From assembly GCF_013315695.1 (NCBI RefSeq), contig NZ_CP054357.1: a stretch of 5,716 bases of DNA, one strand, 5' to 3'. The position numbers and the translations under genes are program-made. Every line of letters starts with the position of its first letter. The first letter of the stretch is position 1. The stretch is from Escherichia coli (GTDB lineage: Bacteria > Pseudomonadota > Gammaproteobacteria > Enterobacterales > Enterobacteriaceae). Positions 1 to 5,716 of this stretch are shown here, one piece after another. The notes below the pieces were generated by a model that saw only the letters and a program-made list of their open reading frames with translations, was not told the origin of the DNA and did not search any database.

Positions 1-423
1 ACTATCGTCATGGCAATATCTCTTTTCGCGTTATCCTCAACATCCAGCACAGAACAACATTTTCACATTATAAAAATATTCGGTGGAGGCTATTTAATAT
101 ACATAGGATTAATGGGTTTAATTAATAAAAAAAACAAACAAAGAAAAGAGCAAAAACCTTTTTTGATACCATTATTAAACCCCAAGGCGTATCTTTTCTT
201 TGCTGCGTTAATACCAACCTTTATAGATAATAATACAAATATCACATTAAACTTTTTTATATTGGGTGTTTTATTTATATTTATATCATTCCTAACAGAT
301 CTTATTTACATAGCTATTAGCTTAACGATAAGGGATAAATTGACGCCATCATTCTCAAGATACATAAGCATATGTAGTTCCATTTTTATATTAGGTACAG
401 GTATTTATTTTATTTTTACGTGA
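1..423 (+). CDS. LysE/RhtB-family exporter, C-terminal ~140 codons; the frame is open from base 1, so the 5' end lies outside the linear window (it continues from 5567..5716 if the molecule is circular)
   Basis: The frame is open from position 1 (ACT ATC GTC ATG..), so the ATG at 10 is internal. The translation is highly hydrophobic with several predicted TM segments and the motif NPKAYLFFAALIPTFI, matching the conserved NPK..FL.ALFPQF region of RhtB/LysE-type translocators as I recall it. Stop TGA at 421-423. AT-rich codon usage. Confidence 0.75.
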   Translation, partial: TIVMAISLFALSSTSSTEQHFHIIKIFGGGYLIYIGLMGLINKKNKQRKEQKPFLIPLLNPKAYLFFAALIPTFIDNNTNITLNFFILGVLFIFISFLTDLIYIAISLTIRDKLTPSFSRYISICSSIFILGTGIYFIFT

Positions 424-437
424 AACGCCGTTTTTAT

Positions 438-471
438 ACTCATGCAGCCTTAGTCATAAGACGGCATGAGT
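438..471. terminator. Intergenic hairpin between convergent genes (possible weak bidirectional terminator)
   Basis: 8-bp inverted repeat ACTCATGC (438-445) / GCATGAGT (464-471) with an 18-nt loop, in the 57-bp gap between the exporter stop (423) and the stop of the minus-strand 238-aa ORF (481). A short T-run (431-435) lies upstream but there is no strong U-tract after the stem on either strand. Confidence 0.3.
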
Positions 472-480
472 TACTTAACA

Positions 481-1197
481 CTATTTCAGTATGGCATATT
501 TTTTATTTGGTGATTGTTCATTAAAATAATATCCGCTTTCGTCATCAACTAACACGCATGCTTTACGATAATCTCCACACTTCGAGAACTCGGCCAATGG
601 AGCTTTTTCTTTCCATTCTTTTAACATGGATTCATGTTTTTTCTGTTCTTCCATTAGCGAACTAATATTCATTTTGAGATATTCAGCATAGAAAACAGGA
701 GCGATCATTAGCAATAAAAATAATACAATCAACACAATTACCTTTTCGACAATCCTTGTTACTGTATACTTCTCCATTGTTTTTCTAATTATACCTGTCG
801 CAACTTCGGCCTCTCTGGTCGTCTGCTTTAATGATTCCTTTATCTCTTTACTTGTTTGCTCCTCGAAATCAACCCACTCTTTCTTTACATCATTGAGAGT
901 GAAAGATAATTTTTCGCGGAGTAATGACGTTAGTGTATCTGAGACTGATTTCTGTAATTTACAAGATGCCTCATCCATTCCTTTATTAATATAAAATTTA
1001 ACATTAGACACACTATCCCTAAAGGAATAAGAAATTCCAGAAACAACTTTACCTTCACGTTCAAGAGTACTTGTAAAGGTATTTAAGTCATTCACTCTTT
1101 CATTAAGCAGAGTAATTAGCCTGTTCATTTCTTTTATTTGTTTATCATTATACGCAACAAGAGCAGCAATTTTTCTTGAATGTTCATCCAATTGCAT
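481..1197 (-). CDS. Hypothetical membrane protein, 238 aa: N-terminal coiled-coil-like region, one TM helix, small Cys-containing C-terminal domain
   Basis: ORF with a GGAGG Shine-Dalgarno 9 nt upstream of the ATG at 1197, only 20 nt after the mobA stop. The N-terminal ~150 aa are rich in K/E/L/I with heptad-like spacing; one strongly hydrophobic segment (VIVLIVLFLLLMIAPVFYAEYL); the C-terminal ~60 aa contain CGDYRKAC. Clearly more AT-rich than adjacent mobA. I recognise no family. Confidence 0.7.
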   Translation of the reverse strand: MQLDEHSRKIAALVAYNDKQIKEMNRLITLLNERVNDLNTFTSTLEREGKVVSGISYSFRDSVSNVKFYINKGMDEASCKLQKSVSDTLTSLLREKLSFTLNDVKKEWVDFEEQTSKEIKESLKQTTREAEVATGIIRKTMEKYTVTRIVEKVIVLIVLFLLLMIAPVFYAEYLKMNISSLMEEQKKHESMLKEWKEKAPLAEFSKCGDYRKACVLVDDESGYYFNEQSPNKKYAILK

Positions 1198-1217
1198 AAA
1201 ATAAAAACCTCCAGTGC

Positions 1218-2303
1218 TTAACGGCTCATACCATAATCACGTGAACGTGATGGTGCTGGTGAGGAATACGCACGCTGGCGCACTCTTTCTCTTTCCCTCT
1301 CCAGGTCTCTTTGCTTTTCGGCTTCAATTAGTCGTTCCTGTTGCAACTTCCGCTCCTCTTCCACCTGGAATTGCTTCATCATTGAGTCCAGCGCACCGTT
1401 AATCAATGAATTAAGCTGCATTACCTCATTGAGTTCATCAAACGAGCTTTCAACAAACGCCTTCAATTCTGCCCCAAGCTCATCCAGGCTTGGTGGTATG
1501 TTATCCCGTTCAGCTAACGCTTCCTTCAAGGTCGTTTTAAGGTCAATGATGCTGTCCCGTTCCTGCTCTGCTTCTAGCTTCTCCCGTTCCGCGTTTCTCC
1601 GTGCCAGAATTGCACAAACCTGATCAGCATTCATAACAGCAACACGAACGGGACCAAGATGAACTTCCGGTGTGCGCTTGATACCCTGTTCTTTCAGTGA
1701 ACGATGATCAACGCGCGACTGATGGCCGTGCCGCGCAAGGTGTTCATTCTGCACATCAGCCCAGTGAGAACGTAGCGCAACCAAGGCTGATTTTCGCTCT
1801 TGTGGTGTCTCACCAAAGCGTGCCTTTTTTGCACCTCCCCGCTCCGGTGATTTGCTGTTGGCACGTTTAAAAAACTGCTGCGGATCGCGTTCAATACCAT
1901 CATTAATCCGCTCGCAAAACATGATATGTGCGTGTGGTTGTTCCTTTCCGTCGATTGCACCTGGCGGATTGTGGATCGCGTACTGATAGGCATGGCGATC
2001 ACCAAGCTCCTTTTGCACGAAATCTTCAACAAGTTCTATCCGTTGTTCGCGTGTCAGTTCTCGCGGTAATGCGATCTCAATTTCACGGTATGCCGTCCCG
2101 TTTTTTCGTTCAAATTCATCTGCTGCTTTCCATAGCTCTGCGGGATTTTTCTTCGCCCATGATGGCATGTTACCGGATGACGAAAATTCCAGATCCTCCC
2201 GCGATTTGTAGTTCTTATATTCGCCGGATCTAGAAATATAATCAGCATGTTTTAAGGCTACGCCTTTTGCTCCAGTTTTAACTGTACAATGGTAGCTTGC
2301 CAT
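1218..2303 (-). CDS. mobA: MobA relaxase, MOBQ family (RSF1010 MobA-like relaxase domain only, 361 aa)
   Basis: The N-terminus MASYHCTVKTGAKG...HADYISRSGEY parallels RSF1010 MobA (MAIYHLTAKTG...KADYIQREGKY, catalytic Tyr in the ADYI motif). It also carries EIEIALPREL and the histidine motif HAHIMFCERINDGIERDPQQFFKR (RSF1010: HCHLMISERINDGIERPAAQWFKR), then VDHRSLKEQGIKRTPEVHLGP. The C-terminus is ER-rich low complexity. Comparison is from memory of the RSF1010 sequence. Confidence 0.9.
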   Translation of the reverse strand: MASYHCTVKTGAKGVALKHADYISRSGEYKNYKSREDLEFSSSGNMPSWAKKNPAELWKAADEFERKNGTAYREIEIALPRELTREQRIELVEDFVQKELGDRHAYQYAIHNPPGAIDGKEQPHAHIMFCERINDGIERDPQQFFKRANSKSPERGGAKKARFGETPQERKSALVALRSHWADVQNEHLARHGHQSRVDHRSLKEQGIKRTPEVHLGPVRVAVMNADQVCAILARRNAEREKLEAEQERDSIIDLKTTLKEALAERDNIPPSLDELGAELKAFVESSFDELNEVMQLNSLINGALDSMMKQFQVEEERKLQQERLIEAEKQRDLERERERVRQRAYSSPAPSRSRDYGMSR

Positions 2304-2333
2304 CTGCCGTTAAGCCCTCCGCAGGAGCGCACT

Positions 2334-2387
2334 GTTTCTCGACGAAGGAGAGAAACGTCTAAGTGCGCATCCCTGAATTAATCAGGG
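2334..2387 (+). other. oriT: oriT (origin of transfer) with RSF1010-type nic region; predicted nick between 2367 and 2368 on the + strand
   Basis: Inverted repeat GTTTCTC (2334-2340) / GAGAAAC (2350-2356) followed by TAAGTGCGC (2361-2369). RSF1010 oriT, as I recall it, has GTTTCTCGAAGAGAAAC then GGTAAGTGCG^CCCT. A second small palindrome CCCTGA-ATTAA-TCAGGG follows at 2371-2387. It lies between divergent mobA and mobC, as in RSF1010. Confidence 0.7.
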
Positions 2388-2421
2388 ATGATTTTAAGGT
2401 CTCACACGCAGGCAGACAAGG

Positions 2422-2430
2422 TGATATTAT
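2422..2430 (+). promoter_or_regulatory. Putative extended -10 element (TGaTATTAT) for the mobC transcript
   Basis: TG at 2422-2423 followed by TATTAT at 2425-2430, about 45 nt upstream of the mobC start; no good -35 hexamer is seen. Sequence-pattern inference only. Confidence 0.3.
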
Positions 2431-2474
2431 GCACAATAACAACTCACATTAACGGCAAAAGTGCAGAGGTAAGA

Positions 2475-2921
2475 ATGACAAATCGTGAAGAGTGGTTAAG
2501 TGCAAAAATTGCCTATATCAACGGACTGAAATCACCGTCAGAGCAGCAAAGATTACTTGTGTTACTGGCAGAGAAAAAAAACCGAACAACGACGGATGAA
2601 AAAACGTTGTCCGCACTGATACGGGCAGAAAAAACCGCAGAGAAAGCAGCCGCAGCAAAAGCCAGGGTAACGGCAATAATAGCGGCAGAACGGAAGGCAG
2701 CCGCAAGGGCGGAACGAAAGGCGCGGGATCATGAACTCTACAAGGCCGCAGGCCTCATGATTGTGGCAGGACTGGTGGACAGCAAAACCGGAAAACCAAA
2801 GTTTAGTGCTGCCGAACTGGTAGGCGCACTCGCAGGAATCGCAGAGCTACCGCGCAACCATCCAAAATGGCAGGAATGGGAAAAACGCGGGAAAGAGCTA
2901 CTCACCAAAGACAGTGCGTAA
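2475..2921 (+). CDS. mobC: MobC / TraD-like relaxosome accessory protein (148 aa from the ATG at 2475)
   Basis: Divergent from mobA across oriT. SD GAGGT sits 4 nt upstream of the ATG at 2475. An Ala/Lys/Arg/Glu-rich helical region (AEKAAAAKARVTAIIAAERKAAARAERKARDHE) is followed by a hydrophobic stretch (LYKAAGLMIVAGLVD), which resembles the RSF1010 MobC pattern (..ERKNETRRKVLVGAMILAKV..) from memory. The upstream in-frame ATG at 2388 lies inside the oriT palindrome and lacks a convincing SD. Confidence 0.7.
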   Translation: MTNREEWLSAKIAYINGLKSPSEQQRLLVLLAEKKNRTTTDEKTLSALIRAEKTAEKAAAAKARVTAIIAAERKAAARAERKARDHELYKAAGLMIVAGLVDSKTGKPKFSAAELVGALAGIAELPRNHPKWQEWEKRGKELLTKDSA

Positions 2922-2949
2922 GAGCCTCCGTTCACGTTCCGGTTCCCTG

Positions 2950-3003
2950 GTGCTTCCTCGCTCATTCGCTCGCTACGCTCGGTCATTGAGACTGCGGCGA
3001 GCA
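2950..3003. other. ssi / primosome-assembly-site-like element (ColE1 PAS-like)
   Basis: TGCTTCCTCGCTCATTCGCTCGCTACGCTCGGTCATTGAGACTGCGGCGAGC closely resembles the ColE1/pBR322 segment GCTTCCTCGCTCACTGACTCGCTGCGCTCGGTCGTTCGGCTGCGGCGAGC (from memory), which lies in the ColE1 primosome assembly region. Its function here is inferred. Confidence 0.45.
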
Positions 3004-3078
3004 CAACCACCACTCACACACAGACGCTAAAACCATTGCCAAACGAAACACGGGAAATCACCCCAAACCTACCCGCTC

Positions 3079-3097
3079 AAAAAAACGCCTACAGGCG
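3079..3097 (-). terminator. Short hairpin plus T7 run just beyond the ori (possible rep transcript terminator)
   Basis: The minus strand reads CGCCTGTAGGCG followed by TTTTTTT (plus-strand A-run 3079-3085). The stem is only 4 bp, so this is weak. Confidence 0.3.
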
Positions 3098-3130
3098 CTG
3101 TTATCTGATAAGGCTTGTTATCTGGTCTCA
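3090..3130 (-). other. ori: ColE2-type replication origin (Rep binding and priming site) immediately 3' of rep
   Basis: The minus strand reads AAAATGAGACCAGATAACAAGCCTTATCAGATAACAGCGCCTGT, with CAGATAACA repeated. This matches my recollection of the ColE2-P9 minimal origin (TGAGACCAGATAAGCCTTATCAGATAACAGCGCC). The rep stop codon TGA (3128-3130) is the first triplet of this element. Confidence 0.7.
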
Positions 3131-4057
3131 TTTTGCGAGATCTGGATCACATTTTAGTTTTCGATAGTATGTGGCACGACTGATCCCTAACGTCACCCAC
3201 GGCTTCAGAGTTCGTGCCGATGTGGCAACGGCTACACGCTTTGATTTCTGACCTTTAATAGCCTGATTTTCTGATGAATTTGCATTACCGCCCTTACGAC
3301 CTCGAGCAGCCTGTACCGCGGAAAAGCCTTCAGGAGAGAATTTGCGGTAGGTGTATTTCGCAATACTCTTGCCAATAGCCCGACATTCAGCCGGAGAAAG
3401 CGGAACGGGAAGCGATGCGTTGTACATTTCGACACGCTGAATCACTGCATCAAGCCACGGTGAGAATGCTGGCCAGCCCTGACGAATCGCCCTGTAAGAC
3501 CATTTACGGCCCTTTTCGAACAGATACCAGTTTCGCCCCATCCCGTAATCTTTATCGACGCGACGGCGCGCTGAGGCGCTCAAATCAAGATAATCCGCCA
3601 GTTCGTCGAGGGTATAGAGTTCCCAACGCCATTCCACCACCTGCCATTCCTGGTGGAACGGATTTTTGCAGATCAGGCCGCTGTAGTTCACATCCGCGCC
3701 CAGTTTTTCACACAGCGCACGCTCAATCACGGCAGCGTATTTGAGCGCCGAAGCCGATGCATCCGGCGCGGTTCTCACCGGAAGAGTGAGCGCGTAGAGC
3801 AGATGCGCGTGCCCGTTACGTGGATTTTTTACGGTGATGTTCGGGGCCGGACAGTTCCGGTCGCTCCAGTCGATCGCTGCCCCCGTCCGGTCAACGTCAA
3901 AGGCCAGCCAGTGCTGCGCATGTGGCTGGTTCTGCTGGATGAAACGGGCAAGGATGGCGATATCTTTCGGTAGAATGCGAACGCCGTACGTGAAATCGTT
4001 CGTACAGTACGGTTTGTGCGGTAATTTTTCCCTGAAGAGTTGAAGTACGGCGCTCAT
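3128..4057 (-). CDS. rep: ColE2/ColE3-family replication initiator Rep (plasmid-specific primase), 309 aa
   Basis: Translation MSAVLQLFREKLPHKPYCTNDFTYGVRILPKDIAILARFIQQNQPHAQHWLAFDVDRTGAAIDWSDRNCPAPNITVKNPRNGHAHLLYAL... is near-identical over long stretches to ColE2-P9 Rep as I remember it. GGAGG sits 12 nt upstream of the ATG, and the cognate ori-like sequence lies directly downstream. Confidence 0.9.
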   Translation of the reverse strand: MSAVLQLFREKLPHKPYCTNDFTYGVRILPKDIAILARFIQQNQPHAQHWLAFDVDRTGAAIDWSDRNCPAPNITVKNPRNGHAHLLYALTLPVRTAPDASASALKYAAVIERALCEKLGADVNYSGLICKNPFHQEWQVVEWRWELYTLDELADYLDLSASARRRVDKDYGMGRNWYLFEKGRKWSYRAIRQGWPAFSPWLDAVIQRVEMYNASLPVPLSPAECRAIGKSIAKYTYRKFSPEGFSAVQAARGRKGGNANSSENQAIKGQKSKRVAVATSARTLKPWVTLGISRATYYRKLKCDPDLAK

Positions 4058-4155
4058 GTGTTAGGATTTCCTCCGTGTGTTACGACCCACACGCCCCTTG
4101 AATTTTCGTGACAGTCTTGGCGGATCGGCACGAATTTCAGGGGCGTTTGTTTTTC
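4040..4155 (+). ncRNA. Candidate antisense RNA I (copy-number control RNA complementary to the rep mRNA leader); boundaries approximate
   Basis: Plus-strand promoter-like elements TTGAAG (4040-4045), 16-nt spacer, TAGGAT (4062-4067), overlapping the rep start codon. A long imperfect hairpin plus T-run ends at about 4155. ColE2 replicons are known to use an antisense RNA of about 115 nt against the rep leader. With this promoter the transcript would be about 80 nt, so the true 5' end is uncertain. Confidence 0.45.
4094..4155 (+). terminator. Rho-independent terminator-like hairpin plus T-run (3' end of candidate RNA I; same structure in complement forms the rep leader stem-loop)
   Basis: Left arm CCCCTTGAATTTTCGTG (4094-4110), right arm CACGAATTTCAGGGG (4129-4143), imperfect with one or two bulges and an 18-nt loop, followed by CGTTTGTTTTTC (4144-4155). 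Confidence 0.5.
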
Positions 4156-4163
4156 AGTTGGTT

Positions 4164-4192
4164 ACACTACACCCAACGGCAAATCCTGTCGA
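4164..4192 (-). promoter_or_regulatory. Putative rep promoter (minus strand: -35 TCGACA, 17-nt spacer, -10 TAGTGT)
   Basis: Reverse complement of 4187-4192 is TCGACA and of 4164-4169 is TAGTGT, separated by 17 nt. The predicted start near 4157 would give a ~100-nt rep leader fully covered by the candidate RNA I. Pattern-based only. Confidence 0.3.
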
Positions 4193-4213
4193 TCCTTCCC
4201 GAAAACCAGACCC

Positions 4214-4241
4214 ATTTACCATAACTCCTCTTGTACGTACC
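4214..4241 (-). other. XerC/XerD core recombination site (cer/psi-like multimer resolution site)
   Basis: The minus strand reads GGTACGTACAA-GAGGAG-TTATGGTAAAT. The XerD arm is identical to ColE1 cer (TTATGGTAAAT) and the XerC arm differs from cer (GGTGCGTACAA) at one position; the central region is 6 bp, as in dif and psi rather than cer's 8 bp. Accessory sequences would extend to about 4430 on the XerC side. Confidence 0.65.
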
Positions 4242-4342
4242 CTCTAAAACGCTCTCAATCGCTTTCTGACGCAAAAAACTCAAAAAGACAAGATAAACCT
4301 AGGGAAAACACAAAAAACGCGTCAGAATCGTTTTTAGGGGTC

Positions 4343-4356
4343 TGCATAACTATGCA
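4343..4356. promoter_or_regulatory. Perfect palindrome TGCATA-AC-TATGCA: candidate ARG box (ArgR accessory site) for the cer-like site
   Basis: 14-bp perfect palindrome about 120 bp from the XerCD core on the XerC side. It resembles the ARG-box half-sites (TGAAT....ATTCA) with an A-to-C substitution; cer-type sites require ArgR and PepA binding about 100 bp from the core. Confidence 0.35.
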
Positions 4357-4481
4357 CAAAAGCGATTAATGATCGGTTTCACCCCTTCAGAAGCGCGAAC
4401 TGGTCAAAACAGCAAACTTTCTCATCCAGAAAGCCAGCTGAACTAACCCGCATGAAAACAAATTTCCAAACATATCCAGTC

Positions 4482-4508
4482 TGGACAACGAAATATCGAC
4501 AATATAAA
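4482..4508 (+). promoter_or_regulatory. Putative sigma70 promoter for the cargo operon (-35 TGGACA, 15-nt spacer, -10 TATAAA)
   Basis: TGGACA at 4482-4487 and TATAAA at 4503-4508, about 100 nt upstream of the ATG at 4610. The spacer is short; pattern-based only. Confidence 0.3.
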
Positions 4509-4609
4509 ACATCATAATCGTGTTTATGGCGTGTAAAAAAGCTTACAAGAGAATTAGCATTGAAGAGTCATAACAACAAATTCCAAAAATCAAACCAGAG
4601 GATAGGAAA

Positions 4610-5560
4610 ATGAATAATTTTATAAATGAATGTATTTCCGCTCCGAGAATAAACGGCATGGCAGAATTTTTCTCATCAACTGCATCAGGGGAAAAACACA
4701 AACCTTTTAGACTAGTAGAAATAGATGATCGGCTTTTTCATTCTTATGATTACATTAAGTTTGCCAAACACCTCACAAAAAACAGCGGCCCTTTCGTTAA
4801 TCATTATTTTTGCAGTATACCATACAGCAAGGAAGAAGAGTGCAGATTAGGAACAACAGTAATAAAATACGCAATCACGCTAAACAAAAAATTAAACACA
4901 TGGTGTCTTGGTATGGCTGAGGGCGCAATGGCAAGAACCATTTCAGAATTATCAAAAGGAAACATACAAACATTAACAACCAGTCCAACAAAAGAAAATG
5001 AACATGCATTTTTTAAGTATAGCTCAAGTGAAAACGCTTATTTTATTTGCACTCCATTTTTCCTGTTAGAGGAAAGACTAAAAAATTCAAATCTTAAACA
5101 ATTTAATCAAGGATTCGATATTATAATAGAAGACACCACATTTCAAATGTACTCACCTAACAGATCTGGGCAAATAAACCACGTAAAAAGGCTATTAAAT
5201 AATGATGGTATTTTCATATTTACAGAAAAACATAGTTCAGAACATGATGAATATCAAAAAAGAGAAATCCAAAAAGATTATTCATTCAAACAAAGGTATT
5301 TCTCGAAAGATGAGATTAACACCAAAAAGGAAATCGTACTAAACACAATGAATTTGAATGAAGTTAGTGTTGACGATATGCTTTCCGCAATTAAACAACA
5401 TTTTAAATACGCATCAATATATTGGAATAGCGGAAATTTTTACTCAATCGCCGCCAGCAATTCACTAAAACACATATCAACATTTATAAATTTATTACCG
5501 AAAGCTGCAATTCCTATGGAATATGTATATGAAAAGCTCCCACGAAATATATCATGGTAA
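4610..5560 (+). CDS. Hypothetical protein, 316 aa; possible class I SAM-dependent methyltransferase-like Rossmann core (tentative)
   Basis: SD AGAGGA 7 nt upstream of the ATG; AT-rich. The central region has MTase-like motif spacing: LGMAEGAMARTI (glycine-rich, motif I-like), then about 65 aa later FDIIIEDTTF (motif II-like), then VKRLLNNDGIFIFTE (motif III-like). No canonical GxGxG and no (D/N/S)PP(Y/F) DNA-MTase motif. Stop TAA at 5558-5560. Confidence 0.75.
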   Translation: MNNFINECISAPRINGMAEFFSSTASGEKHKPFRLVEIDDRLFHSYDYIKFAKHLTKNSGPFVNHYFCSIPYSKEEECRLGTTVIKYAITLNKKLNTWCLGMAEGAMARTISELSKGNIQTLTTSPTKENEHAFFKYSSSENAYFICTPFFLLEERLKNSNLKQFNQGFDIIIEDTTFQMYSPNRSGQINHVKRLLNNDGIFIFTEKHSSEHDEYQKREIQKDYSFKQRYFSKDEINTKKEIVLNTMNLNEVSVDDMLSAIKQHFKYASIYWNSGNFYSIAASNSLKHISTFINLLPKAAIPMEYVYEKLPRNISW

Positions 5561-5566
5561 GTAAAC

Positions 5567-5716
5567 ATGGAATATTCAACATTATTATCATTTGCTATCG
5601 TAACCTTATCGCAAACTATATCAATAGGGCCTGGCGTTGCATTGGTTATAAACAATGCCTTTTCACATGGATTAAAGTCATCAATAAAAACAAGTATATA
5701 CATAAGAATTGGCGAG
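5567..5716 (+). CDS. LysE/RhtB-family exporter, N-terminal 50 codons; 3' end runs off the window (continues at 1..423 if circular)
   Basis: ATG at 5567, 6 nt after the stop of the 316-aa gene. MEYSTLLSFAIVTLSQTISIGPGVALVINNAFSHGLKSSIKTSIYIRIGE has the hydrophobic N-terminus and S-x-GPG motif typical of LysE/RhtB translocators (RhtB: ..[20 protein letters not shown]..). There is no stop before the window end, and the window ends exactly on a codon boundary. Confidence 0.75.
   Translation, partial: MEYSTLLSFAIVTLSQTISIGPGVALVINNAFSHGLKSSIKTSIYIRIGE

Follow-up and report, generated by a model that had tools for sequence, protein, structure and literature searches.

Organization of the plasmid

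The window (the whole stretch of 5,716 nt analysed here) represents a complete 5.7-kb mobilizable plasmid and is 100% identical to circular 5716-bp records from E. coli and Salmonella. The identical records are typed as mobilizable and MOBQ, and the lineage of the window is rep_cluster_2141; the plasmid is already present in the databases and belongs to an ordinary small mobilizable type of E. coli and Salmonella. A relaxase gene (mobA), a gene for a 238-aa membrane protein directly 3′ of it, an origin of transfer, a divergent traD-like gene and a rep gene with its probable origin are arranged as listed in Table 1. The cargo genes encode a LysE-family transporter and a methyltransferase-like protein, and a colicin operon is absent. 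An Rfam scan of the entire window matched nothing, and the cer pattern of ColE1 was likewise not found when an 8-nt spacer was set, the spacer of the site being 6 nt. The GC content differs among the genes, with 0.48 for mobA, 0.33 for the 238-aa ORF, 0.32 for the methyltransferase-like gene and 0.29 for the LysE gene. The 238-aa gene therefore matches the cargo block and not mobA in composition, and it may have come with the cargo.

Table 1. Features of the plasmid, with positions in the window and the evidence for each
Feature	Position	Strand	Evidence
mobA, MOBQ-class relaxase, 361 aa, full CDS	1218..2303	-	ORF, ATG start, PF03389
Relaxase (HUH-type trans-esterase) domain of MobA, aa 1 to about 222	1638..2303	-	alignment, AlphaFold model
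C-terminal all-helical region of MobA, aa 223-346	1266..1637	-	model, family alignment, no Pfam domain
Disordered basic tail of MobA, aa 347-361	1221..1265	-	pLDDT <50
mbeB/mobB-like gene, 238 aa, bitopic membrane protein	481..1197	-	homology, synteny, model
Alternate-frame ORF, 112 aa, inside relaxase domain, not a gene	1694..2032	-	+1 sense frame
Alternate-frame ORF, 64 aa, not a gene	2054..2248	-	+1 sense frame
oriT, IncQ type	2327..2390	+	inverted repeat and nick core
traD-like relaxosome accessory gene, 148 aa, divergent from mobA	2475..2921	+	PF06412
rep, ColE2-type replication initiator	3128..4057	-	PF03090, PDB 3VW4
Probable ColE2-type ori, overlapping the rep end	3093..3135	-	sequence AAAATGAGACCAGATAACAAGCCTTATCAGATAACAGCGCC

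A short MOBQ relaxase

The mobA gene is preceded by a GGAGG sequence 12 nt 5′ of its start, and the product is annotated in the identical record NZ_CP082933.1 as a “MobA/MobL family protein” (WP_001530418.1). The Pfam model MobA_MobL (PF03389) matches aa 25-221 with 130.8 bits (cut-off 26.7) and is the only domain found by a Pfam scan of the protein; the NCBIfam equivalog NF041496 (“MobQ”) scores 100.8 bits, which is under its cut-off of 200 bits. Residues 2-194 match the sequence of the minimal MobA of R1162 (PDB 2NS6; E 3.5e-37), and in a fold search the AlphaFold model of MobA, a predicted structure, matched the same entry with a target-normalised TM of 0.84 (E about 3e-16). The candidate catalytic residues, namely Y22, E74/E76 and the histidines H111, H124 and H126, are invariant or nearly so in an alignment of 29 homologues, and they align with Y25, E74/E76 and the His triad of R1162. 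The 361-aa protein is therefore a MOBQ relaxase as judged from its profile match, its catalytic motifs and its predicted fold, all of which fit. Alignment to MOBQ relaxase profiles, which the initial annotation had proposed for defining the domain boundaries, places PF03389 at aa 25-221 and the relaxase at aa 1 to about 220. Comparison with a 92%-identical relative revealed 42 synonymous and nine non-synonymous codon differences in mobA, and the gene is thus under purifying selection.

The model predicts helices at aa 226-252, 259-267 and 273-346 and no strands beyond aa 133, the long helix at aa 273-346 having a pLDDT of about 75-87. According to the alignment and the model, aa 223-346 contain an E/R-rich coiled coil together with two blocks of conserved sequence, and the last 50 residues are rich in E, R and Q. 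The C-terminal tail had been described as ER-rich and of low complexity; the first part of this description holds, but the second does not, since the region is conserved and helical and ends in a conserved motif (YGMSR or GWS(FS)R at the extreme C-terminus, kept across the family). The final 30 residues contain nine K or R and five D or E. Basic C-terminal signals for type IV secretion have been described (PMC3297438), and by analogy the basic tail of MobA may be such a recognition signal.

No primase was found in this tail: Pfam and NCBIfam scans gave zero matches, and a PDB fold search returned relaxases alone. The RepB primase domains (PF16793 and PF22448) were absent from MobA and were found in the IncQ1 control, plasmid L007, which served as a proxy for RSF1010 in our comparisons. 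The primase domain was also absent from sister relaxases of 516 and 619 aa. The possibility that the tail is a primase is rejected on the basis of the domain scans, the all-helical model and the fold matches restricted to relaxases, and MobA consists of a relaxase domain and a helical tail without a primase. The initial claim that MobA lacks a primase domain is accordingly confirmed by the Pfam scan, the model and the fold search. What does not survive is the oddity implied by measuring MobA against RSF1010. Among the 120 database clusters nearest to MobA, most have lengths of 355-375 aa and contain PF03389 only, and this short form is common to more than 100 clusters across Enterobacterales; related relaxases in this size range number in the hundreds. 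From the distribution of these sequences, the primase-less short MOBQ relaxase is the norm, and the relaxase-primase fusion of IncQ plasmids is the exception; the present plasmid is hence no anomaly.

The 361-aa MobA could alternatively be a decayed remnant of a longer relaxase, either of 514-619 aa or fused to a primase, on a plasmid that is no longer mobilizable. Some relaxases share about 90% identity over aa 1-240 yet have far longer C-termini, which fits this idea. Nevertheless, we regard it as very improbable, because the 355-375-aa form recurs in more than 100 clusters with its C-terminal blocks and end motif conserved, the 42 synonymous and nine non-synonymous differences indicate purifying selection, and oriT is intact, as are the catalytic residues.

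No gene nested in mobA

The initial annotation judged the two alternate-frame ORFs inside mobA not to look protein-like and concluded that a nested mobB of the RSF1010 kind is absent. A nested mobB-like gene at either position would gain some credit from the observation that the Providencia and Acinetobacter homologues retain a +1-frame open stretch that is similar in position and in length. However, open stretches of at least 113 codons arose in 17% of synonymous-codon shuffles of mobA, so the length of the 112-aa ORF is no more than expected by chance from the protein sequence and the codon usage, and the open stretch is interrupted in the Col156 homologue. Moreover, the substitutions that separate the 112-aa ORF from the 92%-identical relative are almost entirely silent for MobA (16 synonymous and one non-synonymous) but amount to 17 changes per 114 aa in the alternate frame, and those in the 64-aa ORF comprise nine synonymous and no non-synonymous changes in the MobA frame. 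Neither ORF has a TM segment or a family match; Pfam and NCBIfam scans of both were unmatched, and a six-frame scan of the window with the MobB and 238-aa-family HMMs matched only the downstream 238-aa gene. The position also differs, in that the ORF overlaps the relaxase core whereas mobB of IncQ sits in the post-relaxase region; beyond aa 222 of MobA, the longest alternate-frame open stretch is only 33 codons. A nested gene was rejected on the homologue frame survey, the shuffles, the substitution pattern and the six-frame HMM scans together, and we assign it next to no probability. Both initial statements are borne out: the alternate ORFs have chance length, no sign of selection and no family match, and the profile check in the alternate frames found no mobB.

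The gene downstream of mobA

The 238-aa gene has its own GGAGG and starts 20 nt past the mobA stop. The protein contains a single strongly hydrophobic segment (aa 153-171), and we took the TM as aa about 151-172. In the predicted layout, the TM is preceded by an N-terminal helical region and followed by a helical stalk, with C207 and C214 lying in a small beta domain at the C-terminus. A word-indexed homologue search retrieved near-identical proteins only, and an exhaustive profile search was needed to uncover the family, which comprises 269 clusters and has no database model. In pairwise comparisons the protein is homologous to those encoded downstream on plasmids of Providencia and Acinetobacter and on Col156 plasmids, and in nine of ten independent contexts the family gene lies directly 3′ of a MobA_MobL gene encoding 309-408 aa, usually with the same GC content as its own mobA. 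Searches of the 238-aa protein and its family against Pfam, NCBIfam and PDB folds yielded coiled-coil noise and no similar solved structure. A search of the literature found no experiments on the plasmid or on the 238-aa family.

The family is connected most strongly to MbeB of ColE1-type plasmids. Profile comparison by hhalign gave a Prob of 98.6% (E 1.2e-15) over 86 columns, BLASTP of the 238-aa protein against MbeB gave E 6e-9, and among the matches listed in a tblastn search with a family member (40 of 486 records), 31 were genes labelled “MbeB family mobilization protein” on ColE1-type plasmids. These alignments indicate that the TM and the C-terminal half of the 238-aa protein are homologous to ColE1 MbeB. 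The MbeB_N domain (PF04837) was not detected in the 238-aa protein, and a ColE1-type control scored 80 bits. In addition, the family matched MobB of IncQ plasmids over 56 columns (hhalign Prob 95.2%, E 2.7e-8), with reversed controls below 2%. The Prob to MobB was 61% when the TM segment was left out and 9% when the juxtamembrane motif was left out as well. The 238-aa-family HMM scored 33-35 bits on IncQ MobB, and in the reciprocal search with the MobB HMM the top non-self matches were members of the 238-aa family. The Mobilization_B model (PF17511) matched neither the 238-aa protein nor any of 57 family members at E thresholds from 0.01 to 10, and the IncQ control scored 228.6 bits. On the profile evidence, the pre-membrane region of the 238-aa protein probably matches IncQ MobB.

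These observations identify the 238-aa ORF as a putative MbeB/MobB-like mobilization accessory gene, supported by homology and synteny. The suggestion that the downstream membrane protein might stand in for MobB, offered at first as speculation, has become plausible through the homology to MbeB, the probable homology to MobB and the synteny. Another reading is that the protein is cargo from the AT-rich LysE/methyltransferase block and takes no part in transfer, for which MobA and the TraD-like protein would be sufficient. Its GC content of 0.33 is near that of the two cargo genes (0.29 for LysE and 0.32 for the methyltransferase-like gene) and not that of mobA (0.48), sister plasmids whose relaxase domains are about 90% identical have no such gene, and MOBQ4 plasmids mobilize with mobA and mobC alone (PMC6856555). 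A cargo origin without function is nonetheless improbable in view of the placement of the family directly 3′ of mobA in nine of ten unrelated contexts, usually at the GC of mobA, the homology to the mobilization protein MbeB, and the 20-nt gap to mobA with a separate RBS. The sisters, in which relaxases about 90% identical in aa 1-240 are encoded on 4-kb plasmids without any gene of the 238-aa family, imply that the gene is not universally required. These gene-less plasmids carry a long MobA tail and thereby offer a natural comparison.

Being a bitopic protein of the envelope whose disulfide-bearing domain is probably periplasmic, the 238-aa product might also be an entry- or surface-exclusion factor that blocks related plasmids in recipients rather than an adaptor, all the more as the ColE1 mob regions encode the exclusion protein MbeD beside MbeB. 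The family HMM, however, gives 76.6 bits on MbeB and only 8 bits on the adjoining MbeD ORF, and the long conserved cytoplasmic helical region fits an intracellular partner; an exclusion function is unlikely.

It is conceivable, although we would sooner doubt than assert it, that the 238-aa family links IncQ MobB and ColE1 MbeB in one superfamily of bitopic relaxosome-docking proteins. Direct profile comparison of MobB with MbeB detected no similarity. If the superfamily is real, the ancestral arrangement would be a free-standing gene 3′ of a short relaxase gene, and the nested mobB and mbeB would have arisen by extension of the relaxase frame through an older helper gene and not by de novo overprinting; in IncQ, this extension would have led to the RepB primase fusion. 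In the mobA/mobB overlap of two IncQ plasmids the identity is 85% in the MobB frame and 79% in the MobA frame, a difference that leaves the relative age of the frames undecided.

Members of the family are found on small plasmids in Enterobacterales, in Acinetobacter and in other Gammaproteobacteria, and a widespread gene 3′ of short mobA genes can now be recognised as an MbeB/MobB-like mobilization accessory. The genes of the family are at present annotated as “hypothetical protein” or, mistakenly, as “tRNA modification GTPase.” The 238-aa protein is a testable candidate for the docking of abundant cryptic plasmids onto helper conjugation systems.

Origin of transfer and proposed mobilization mechanism

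The oriT contains the inverted repeat GTTTCTC (2334-2340) and GAGAAAC (2350-2356), followed by GTC and the core TAAGTGCG|C, where the bar marks the nick; cleavage is predicted between 2367 and 2368, which we take from R1162/RSF1010. A second hairpin is formed by 2368-2376 and 2382-2390. The IncQ-type repeat and a TAAG(T/C)GCG|C core are shared by the IncQ1 plasmid L007 and every relative examined (8 loci). The product of the divergent gene across oriT matches TraD (PF06412) with 34.8 bits (cut-off 22.3); the gene occupies the position of mobC in IncQ, and a divergent counterpart was found in relatives.

We propose the following working model. The TraD-like protein and MobA would assemble at the oriT hairpin, and Y22 of MobA would cut the + strand at TAAGTGCG|C and remain covalently attached to the 5′ end. 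The MbeB/MobB-like protein, whose predicted topology places the N-terminal helices in the cytoplasm and the disulfide-bearing C-terminal domain in the periplasm, would anchor the relaxosome at the membrane and offer MobA to the coupling protein and the type IV secretion system provided by a conjugative plasmid in the same cell. In the recipient, MobA would rejoin the transferred strand, the complementary strand would be made by host enzymes, and Rep-primed replication would then resume. The putative counterpart of the helper gene that overlaps the relaxase gene in IncQ and ColE1 (mobB and mbeB) is free-standing here and lies immediately 3′ of mobA in the same operon.

Probable primase and replication origin of the plasmid

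The rep product matches Replicase (PF03090) with about 143 bits (143.2; cut-off 26), and its DNA-binding domain (aa 174-306) matches PDB 3VW4 (“Rep”) with E 2.5e-63; PriCT_1 scores 16 bits, below its cut-off of 21.1. The sequence AAAATGAGACCAGATAACAAGCCTTATCAGATAACAGCGCC at the end of rep presumably resembles the ori of ColE2-P9. An origin at the rep end agrees with a previous report (PMC6856555). The Rep protein of ColE2 is a primase specific to its plasmid and a member of the archaeo-eukaryotic primase (AEP) superfamily (PMC4538821). The domain match, read together with the primase activity described for ColE2 (PMC4538821; PMC6856555), suggests that the Rep encoded here is the plasmid's own AEP-family primase. 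A primase domain elsewhere on the plasmid had been named in advance as a result that would tell against the initial reading, and the ColE2-type Rep is just such a protein; its presence explains, and does not contradict, the lack of a primase fusion in MobA, since a separate Rep would do the priming. Priming, which in IncQ comes from the MobA-RepB fusion, would here be provided by Rep at its own origin. Thus, the plasmid is likely to combine a ColE2-type replicon with an IncQ-related three-gene mobilization module (the traD-like gene, oriT, mobA and the mbeB/mobB-like gene), with separate priming by Rep; this is the best explanation of the locus.

Comparison with known systems

The relaxase of IncQ1 plasmids (RSF1010/R1162) is 45% identical to MobA but aligns over aa 1-218 only, with the same catalytic residues and fold. 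MobA of the IncQ1 plasmid L007 has 702 aa and carries both RepB_primase domains, the N-terminal and the C-terminal one, at aa 397-673, whereas the present MobA has neither these domains nor the linker. The arms of the oriT repeat and the TAAGTGCG|C core are identical, and the accessory gene is likewise divergent across oriT. By contrast, IncQ1 has an annotated mobC and a RepA/B/C replicon in place of the TraD-like (PF06412) gene and the ColE2-type replicon. The small bitopic helper MobB resembles the 238-aa protein in architecture, and remote homology is probable; however, MobB has no C-terminal Cys-containing domain, and mobB is nested in the +1 frame of mobA whereas the present gene is free-standing and downstream.

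In ColE1, the TM, the post-TM coil and the C-terminal domain of MbeB with its CG..R.CV.V motif are homologous to the 238-aa protein, and in both cases the gene is associated with the 3′ portion of the relaxase gene. On the other hand, mbeB is nested in the +1 frame of mbeA whereas the present gene is separate, MbeB has the MbeB_N domain (PF04837), and its relaxase partner belongs to another MOB class (MOBP5/HEN). For MbeB itself, whose mechanism is poorly known, the published description goes no further than “part of the relaxosome” (PMC5935869).

Small cryptic plasmids of the MOBQ12 type (reference pCE10B, about 5.2 kb), which are common in E. coli, likewise pair a short MOBQ relaxase with a ColE2-like Rep (PMC4270462). 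In the Col156 plasmids (L003 and L004) the cassette is made up as here, with a small gene in divergent orientation, a mobA for 308 aa and a 238-aa-family gene. MobA of these MOBQ12-type and Col156 plasmids is only about 48% identical to the present one. The ColE2-P9 replicon shares PF03090, a 3VW4-type DNA-binding domain and an ori-like sequence at the rep end with the window, which differs in having the LysE-family transporter and the methyltransferase-like gene as cargo and no colicin operon. Finally, the MOBQ4 plasmids (pIGWZ12 and ColE9-J; Garcillan-Barcia 2019) are small plasmids of enterobacteria in which oriT is flanked by a divergent mobA/mobC-like pair, and one subgroup has a ColE2-like Rep as found here (PMC6856555). 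Their catalytic residues are Y25, E87/E89 and H125/H133/H135, compared with Y22, E74/E76 and H111/H124/H126 in the present MobA; the C-terminal part of their relaxases is weakly similar to the SogL primase, and no MbeB-like gene has been described for them (PMC6856555).

Gene content and composition of the plasmid

The window is a whole circular plasmid of 5716 bases carrying six genes; the LysE-family gene, listed among the ORFs only as a 137-aa fragment, runs across the window ends and thereby confirms that a circular molecule was cut arbitrarily. NZ_CP082933.1 (Salmonella London) and several E. coli plasmids are 100% identical to the window over its full length, at least 80% of it is covered by about 27 further records, and PLSDB types the plasmid as mobilizable, MOBQ and rep_cluster_2141. 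GC content is sharply split between window 1..1200 with 4300..5716 and window 1200..4300, being 0.29–0.33 in the LysE, methyltransferase-like and MbeB-like genes and 0.48–0.54 in mobA, the traD-like gene and rep.

Features of the plasmid (window coordinates)
Feature	Position	Strand	Remarks
LysE-family transporter/translocator, 190 aa	5567..5716 + 1..423		spans the window ends
Downstream (MbeB-like) gene, 238 aa	481..1197	-	
mobA, 361 aa	1218..2303	-	
TraD-like gene	2475..2921	+	
Terminator-like hairpin	3084..3099		after the origin-like sequence
ColE2-type origin-like sequence	3093..3135	-	AAAATGAGACCAGATAACAAGCCTTATCAGATAACAGCGCC; overlaps the rep stop codon
rep	3128..4057	-	
XerC/XerD (cer/dif-like) multimer-resolution site	4214..4241	-	GGTACGTACAA-GAGGAG-TTATGGTAAAT; 6-nt spacer
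Methyltransferase-like gene, 316 aa	4610..5560	+	annotated as hypothetical

The 316-aa protein has weak, sub-threshold similarity only, to SAM-dependent methyltransferases (CmoA, Methyltransf_31, spermine synthase). The pattern of the XerC/XerD-like site gave 0 matches in 200 shuffles, and cer-like sites have been reported on ColE2-like plasmids.

The oriT sequence between mobA and the divergent TraD-like gene reads GAGCGCAC-TGTTTCTC-(9 nt)-GAGAAAC-GTC-TAAGTGCG/CATCCCTG (slash, predicted nick). Its inverted-repeat arms and TAAGTGCG/C core are identical to those of IncQ1 oriT and occur in all seven relatives examined; as in R1162/RSF1010, the nick presumably lies on the + strand between 2367 and 2368.

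MobA is a relaxase without a primase domain

The initial annotation described MobA as a relaxase lacking a primase domain, which is correct. The profile search delimits MobA_MobL at aa 25–221 as the sole domain match, and the sequence of 2NS6, the crystallised minimal relaxase of R1162, matches aa 2–194 (E 3.5e-37), with conserved catalytic residues at Y22, E74/E76 and H111/H124/H126. An AlphaFold model built from 29 homologues (mean pLDDT 78) comprises an alpha/beta relaxase core followed by helices only (226–252, 259–267 and 273–346) and a disordered 15-residue tail. In a PDB fold search, this model strongly matched relaxases only, namely 2NS6 (E 3.3e-16, target-normalised TM 0.84) and NES (E 2.7e-8), with TrwC and TraI weaker (E about 0.007–0.1) and no primase among the matches. 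By contrast, the IncQ1 MobA used as a proxy for RSF1010 has 702 aa with RepB primase domains at aa 397–673, and is alignable with the 361-aa protein over aa 1–218 only (45% identity).

A primase domain elsewhere in the plasmid, which the initial annotation had set against its own reading, was looked for and is present. Rep belongs to the ColE2-type initiators, with PF03090 scoring 143 bits and PDB 3VW4 matching at E 2.5e-63, and ColE2 Rep is a plasmid-specific primase of the AEP family, in the superfamily shared with RepB′ (PMC4538821; PMC6856555). The primase “missing” from MobA is supplied by Rep, and fusing relaxase to primase is peculiar to IncQ replication. As for the sequence at 3093..3135, its position and its resemblance to the ColE2-P9 ori make it a probable ColE2-like origin.

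The initial reading was largely right, except that the feature is ordinary rather than unusual: the best 120 database clusters for MobA, from Escherichia, Salmonella, Providencia, Proteus, Morganella, Yersinia, Xenorhabdus and others, are mostly 355–375 aa with PF03389 alone. MOBQ relaxases ordinarily have this short, primase-less form, and the plasmid itself is already known. Comparable small, cryptic MOBQ plasmids have been described in E. coli as abundant yet neglected (PMC4270462).

The C-terminal tail, held to be ER-rich and of low complexity, is indeed rich in E, R and Q throughout the C-terminal third, but it is not featureless. An alignment of MobA homologues (A4) contains three conserved features, namely a helix at aa 225–267, a second block at about aa 275–315, and the extreme C-terminus, YGMSR or GWS(FS)R, which is common to sequences from E. 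coli through Acinetobacter and Methylospira. In distant members of the short-MobA family, YGMSR (window 1221..1235, - strand) appears as GWS(FS)R, GMSR or GWSR. The final 30 residues include 9 basic and 5 acidic ones. Basic signals at the C-terminus are reported for MobA and other substrates of type IV systems (PMC3297438), and by analogy the tail may help the helper's secretion system to recognise MobA.

mobA contains no nested mobB

The two alternate-frame ORFs were judged not to be protein-like, and several lines of evidence bear this out. Both are in the +1 frame within the relaxase core (MobA aa 19–83 and 91–203), whereas IncQ mobB overlaps the linker past the relaxase domain (MobA aa 250–387); past aa 222, the longest alternate-frame open stretch is 33 codons. 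When synonymous codons were shuffled with protein sequence and codon usage both preserved, a +1 open stretch of at least 113 codons arose in 17% of trials (mean 91). Comparing the stretch of the larger ORF with a relative of 92% identity gives 16 synonymous changes and a single non-synonymous one for the MobA frame, with no depression of the synonymous rate, and 17 amino-acid changes over 114 positions for the alternate frame. Six-frame HMM scans with profiles of MobB and of the downstream-gene family found zero matches within mobA. ORF position, shuffles, substitution pattern and scans together rule out a nested mobB in mobA.

The downstream gene belongs to a large family

The 238-aa ORF starts 20 nt past the mobA stop codon with its own GGAGG ahead. 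The first relatives examined (MobA identity 45–56%), from Providencia, two Col156 plasmids (E. coli and Klebsiella) and Acinetobacter, all have a gene at the same position, encoding 166–193 aa with a helical N-terminus, one TM segment and a short C-terminal part. These products are homologous in pairwise comparisons (window and Providencia, E 7e-11; Providencia and Acinetobacter, E 8e-9; Providencia and Col156, E 3e-5), and an exhaustive profile search (E ≤ 0.001) extended the family to 269 clusters. An alignment of 57 full-length members contains, from N to C, a conserved helix (KLxxLMAxAEEQQ), a WKW-type juxtamembrane motif, the TM segment, a post-TM coil and a C-terminal motif, CG..RLCVRVD...G.YG...DY.VLKGY, whose two nearly invariant cysteines correspond to C207 and C214 of the 238-aa protein. 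Its AlphaFold model (pLDDT 80) shows two long helices plus a beta domain (aa 204–235) that is small and confidently predicted, and a PDB fold search found no solved structure resembling it.

In 9 of 10 independent genomic contexts, the family gene lies directly 3′ of a MobA_MobL gene of 309–408 aa; in the tenth, the upstream protein has 439 aa and no family match. This protein (1876..3195 of record L021), which has no Pfam match, is possibly a relaxase of divergent or novel type. None of the Pfam and NCBIfam models recognises the downstream-gene family, whose members are named “hypothetical protein” or, spuriously, “tRNA modification GTPase”; the latter RefSeq mis-annotation affects 4222..4803 of record L002 and the cluster of P0085, the GTPase domain being absent from both.

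GC content of the gene is 0.33 against 0.48 for mobA in the window lineage, whereas in most relatives it equals that of the accompanying mobA. This difference suggests exchange by recombination, here apparently of the gene along with the cargo block. The ECOR 24 plasmid (L006, NZ_LT985301.1) retains, at about 5441..6297 beside strA/strB and Tn3/IS elements, pieces both of a long-form MobA C-terminus and of an MbeB-like gene, which suggests decay of the mob module following resistance-gene insertion.

Sister plasmids with long MobA tails

Relaxases about 90% identical to MobA over aa 1–240 have different, longer coiled-coil C-termini (514–540 and 619 aa), lack a primase domain, and are encoded on approximately 4-kb plasmids with only a TraD-like gene, mobA and rep, one such cluster comprising 1234 member sequences. 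These 4-kb plasmids, which are very abundant in E. coli, contain zero downstream-family members in any frame. Thus, either some backgrounds can do without the downstream gene or the long tail takes its place, and the gene's absence lowers confidence in an essential role. Comparison of records L014–L017 with window 1218..1637 shows relaxase domains of about 90% identity followed by C-terminal regions of three unrelated kinds (about 360, 514–540 and 619 aa); relaxase tails are subject to modular shuffling.

Relation to MbeB and MobB

A tblastn search with one family member matched 486 plasmid records, and 31 of the 40 listed rows are genes annotated as “MbeB family mobilization protein” on ColE1-type plasmids. 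The family profile aligns with ColE1-type MbeB across the TM segment and the entire C-terminal half (Prob 98.6%, E 1.2e-15); the plain family HMM scores 76.6 bits on MbeB, and BLASTP of the 238-aa protein gives E 6e-9. For IncQ MobB, the profile alignment comprises the helix ahead of the membrane, the WxWK motif and the TM segment (Prob 95.2%, E 2.7e-8; reversed-sequence controls <2%), the family HMM scores 33–35 bits, and a reciprocal MobB-HMM search returns downstream-family members as its top non-self matches. However, the MobB signal leans heavily on the membrane-proximal part, falling to 61% without the TM segment and to 9% without segment and motif, and MobB and MbeB gave no match when compared directly. 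From these alignments, HMM results and controls, homology of the C-terminal half to MbeB is taken as established, and homology to MobB as probable.

The proposal that the membrane protein might serve as a functional substitute is made plausible by these homologies and the synteny. From homology, synteny and architecture, the 238-aa protein would dock the relaxosome at the membrane to the helper's coupling protein. The value of the analysis lies in recognising a helper-type gene within a large, hitherto unannotated family. Judged by sequence, the downstream gene is recognised as an MbeB/MobB-like mobilization accessory gene that is free-standing, whereas in the ColE1-type plasmid the 516-aa mbeA ORF contains mbeB in its +1 frame.
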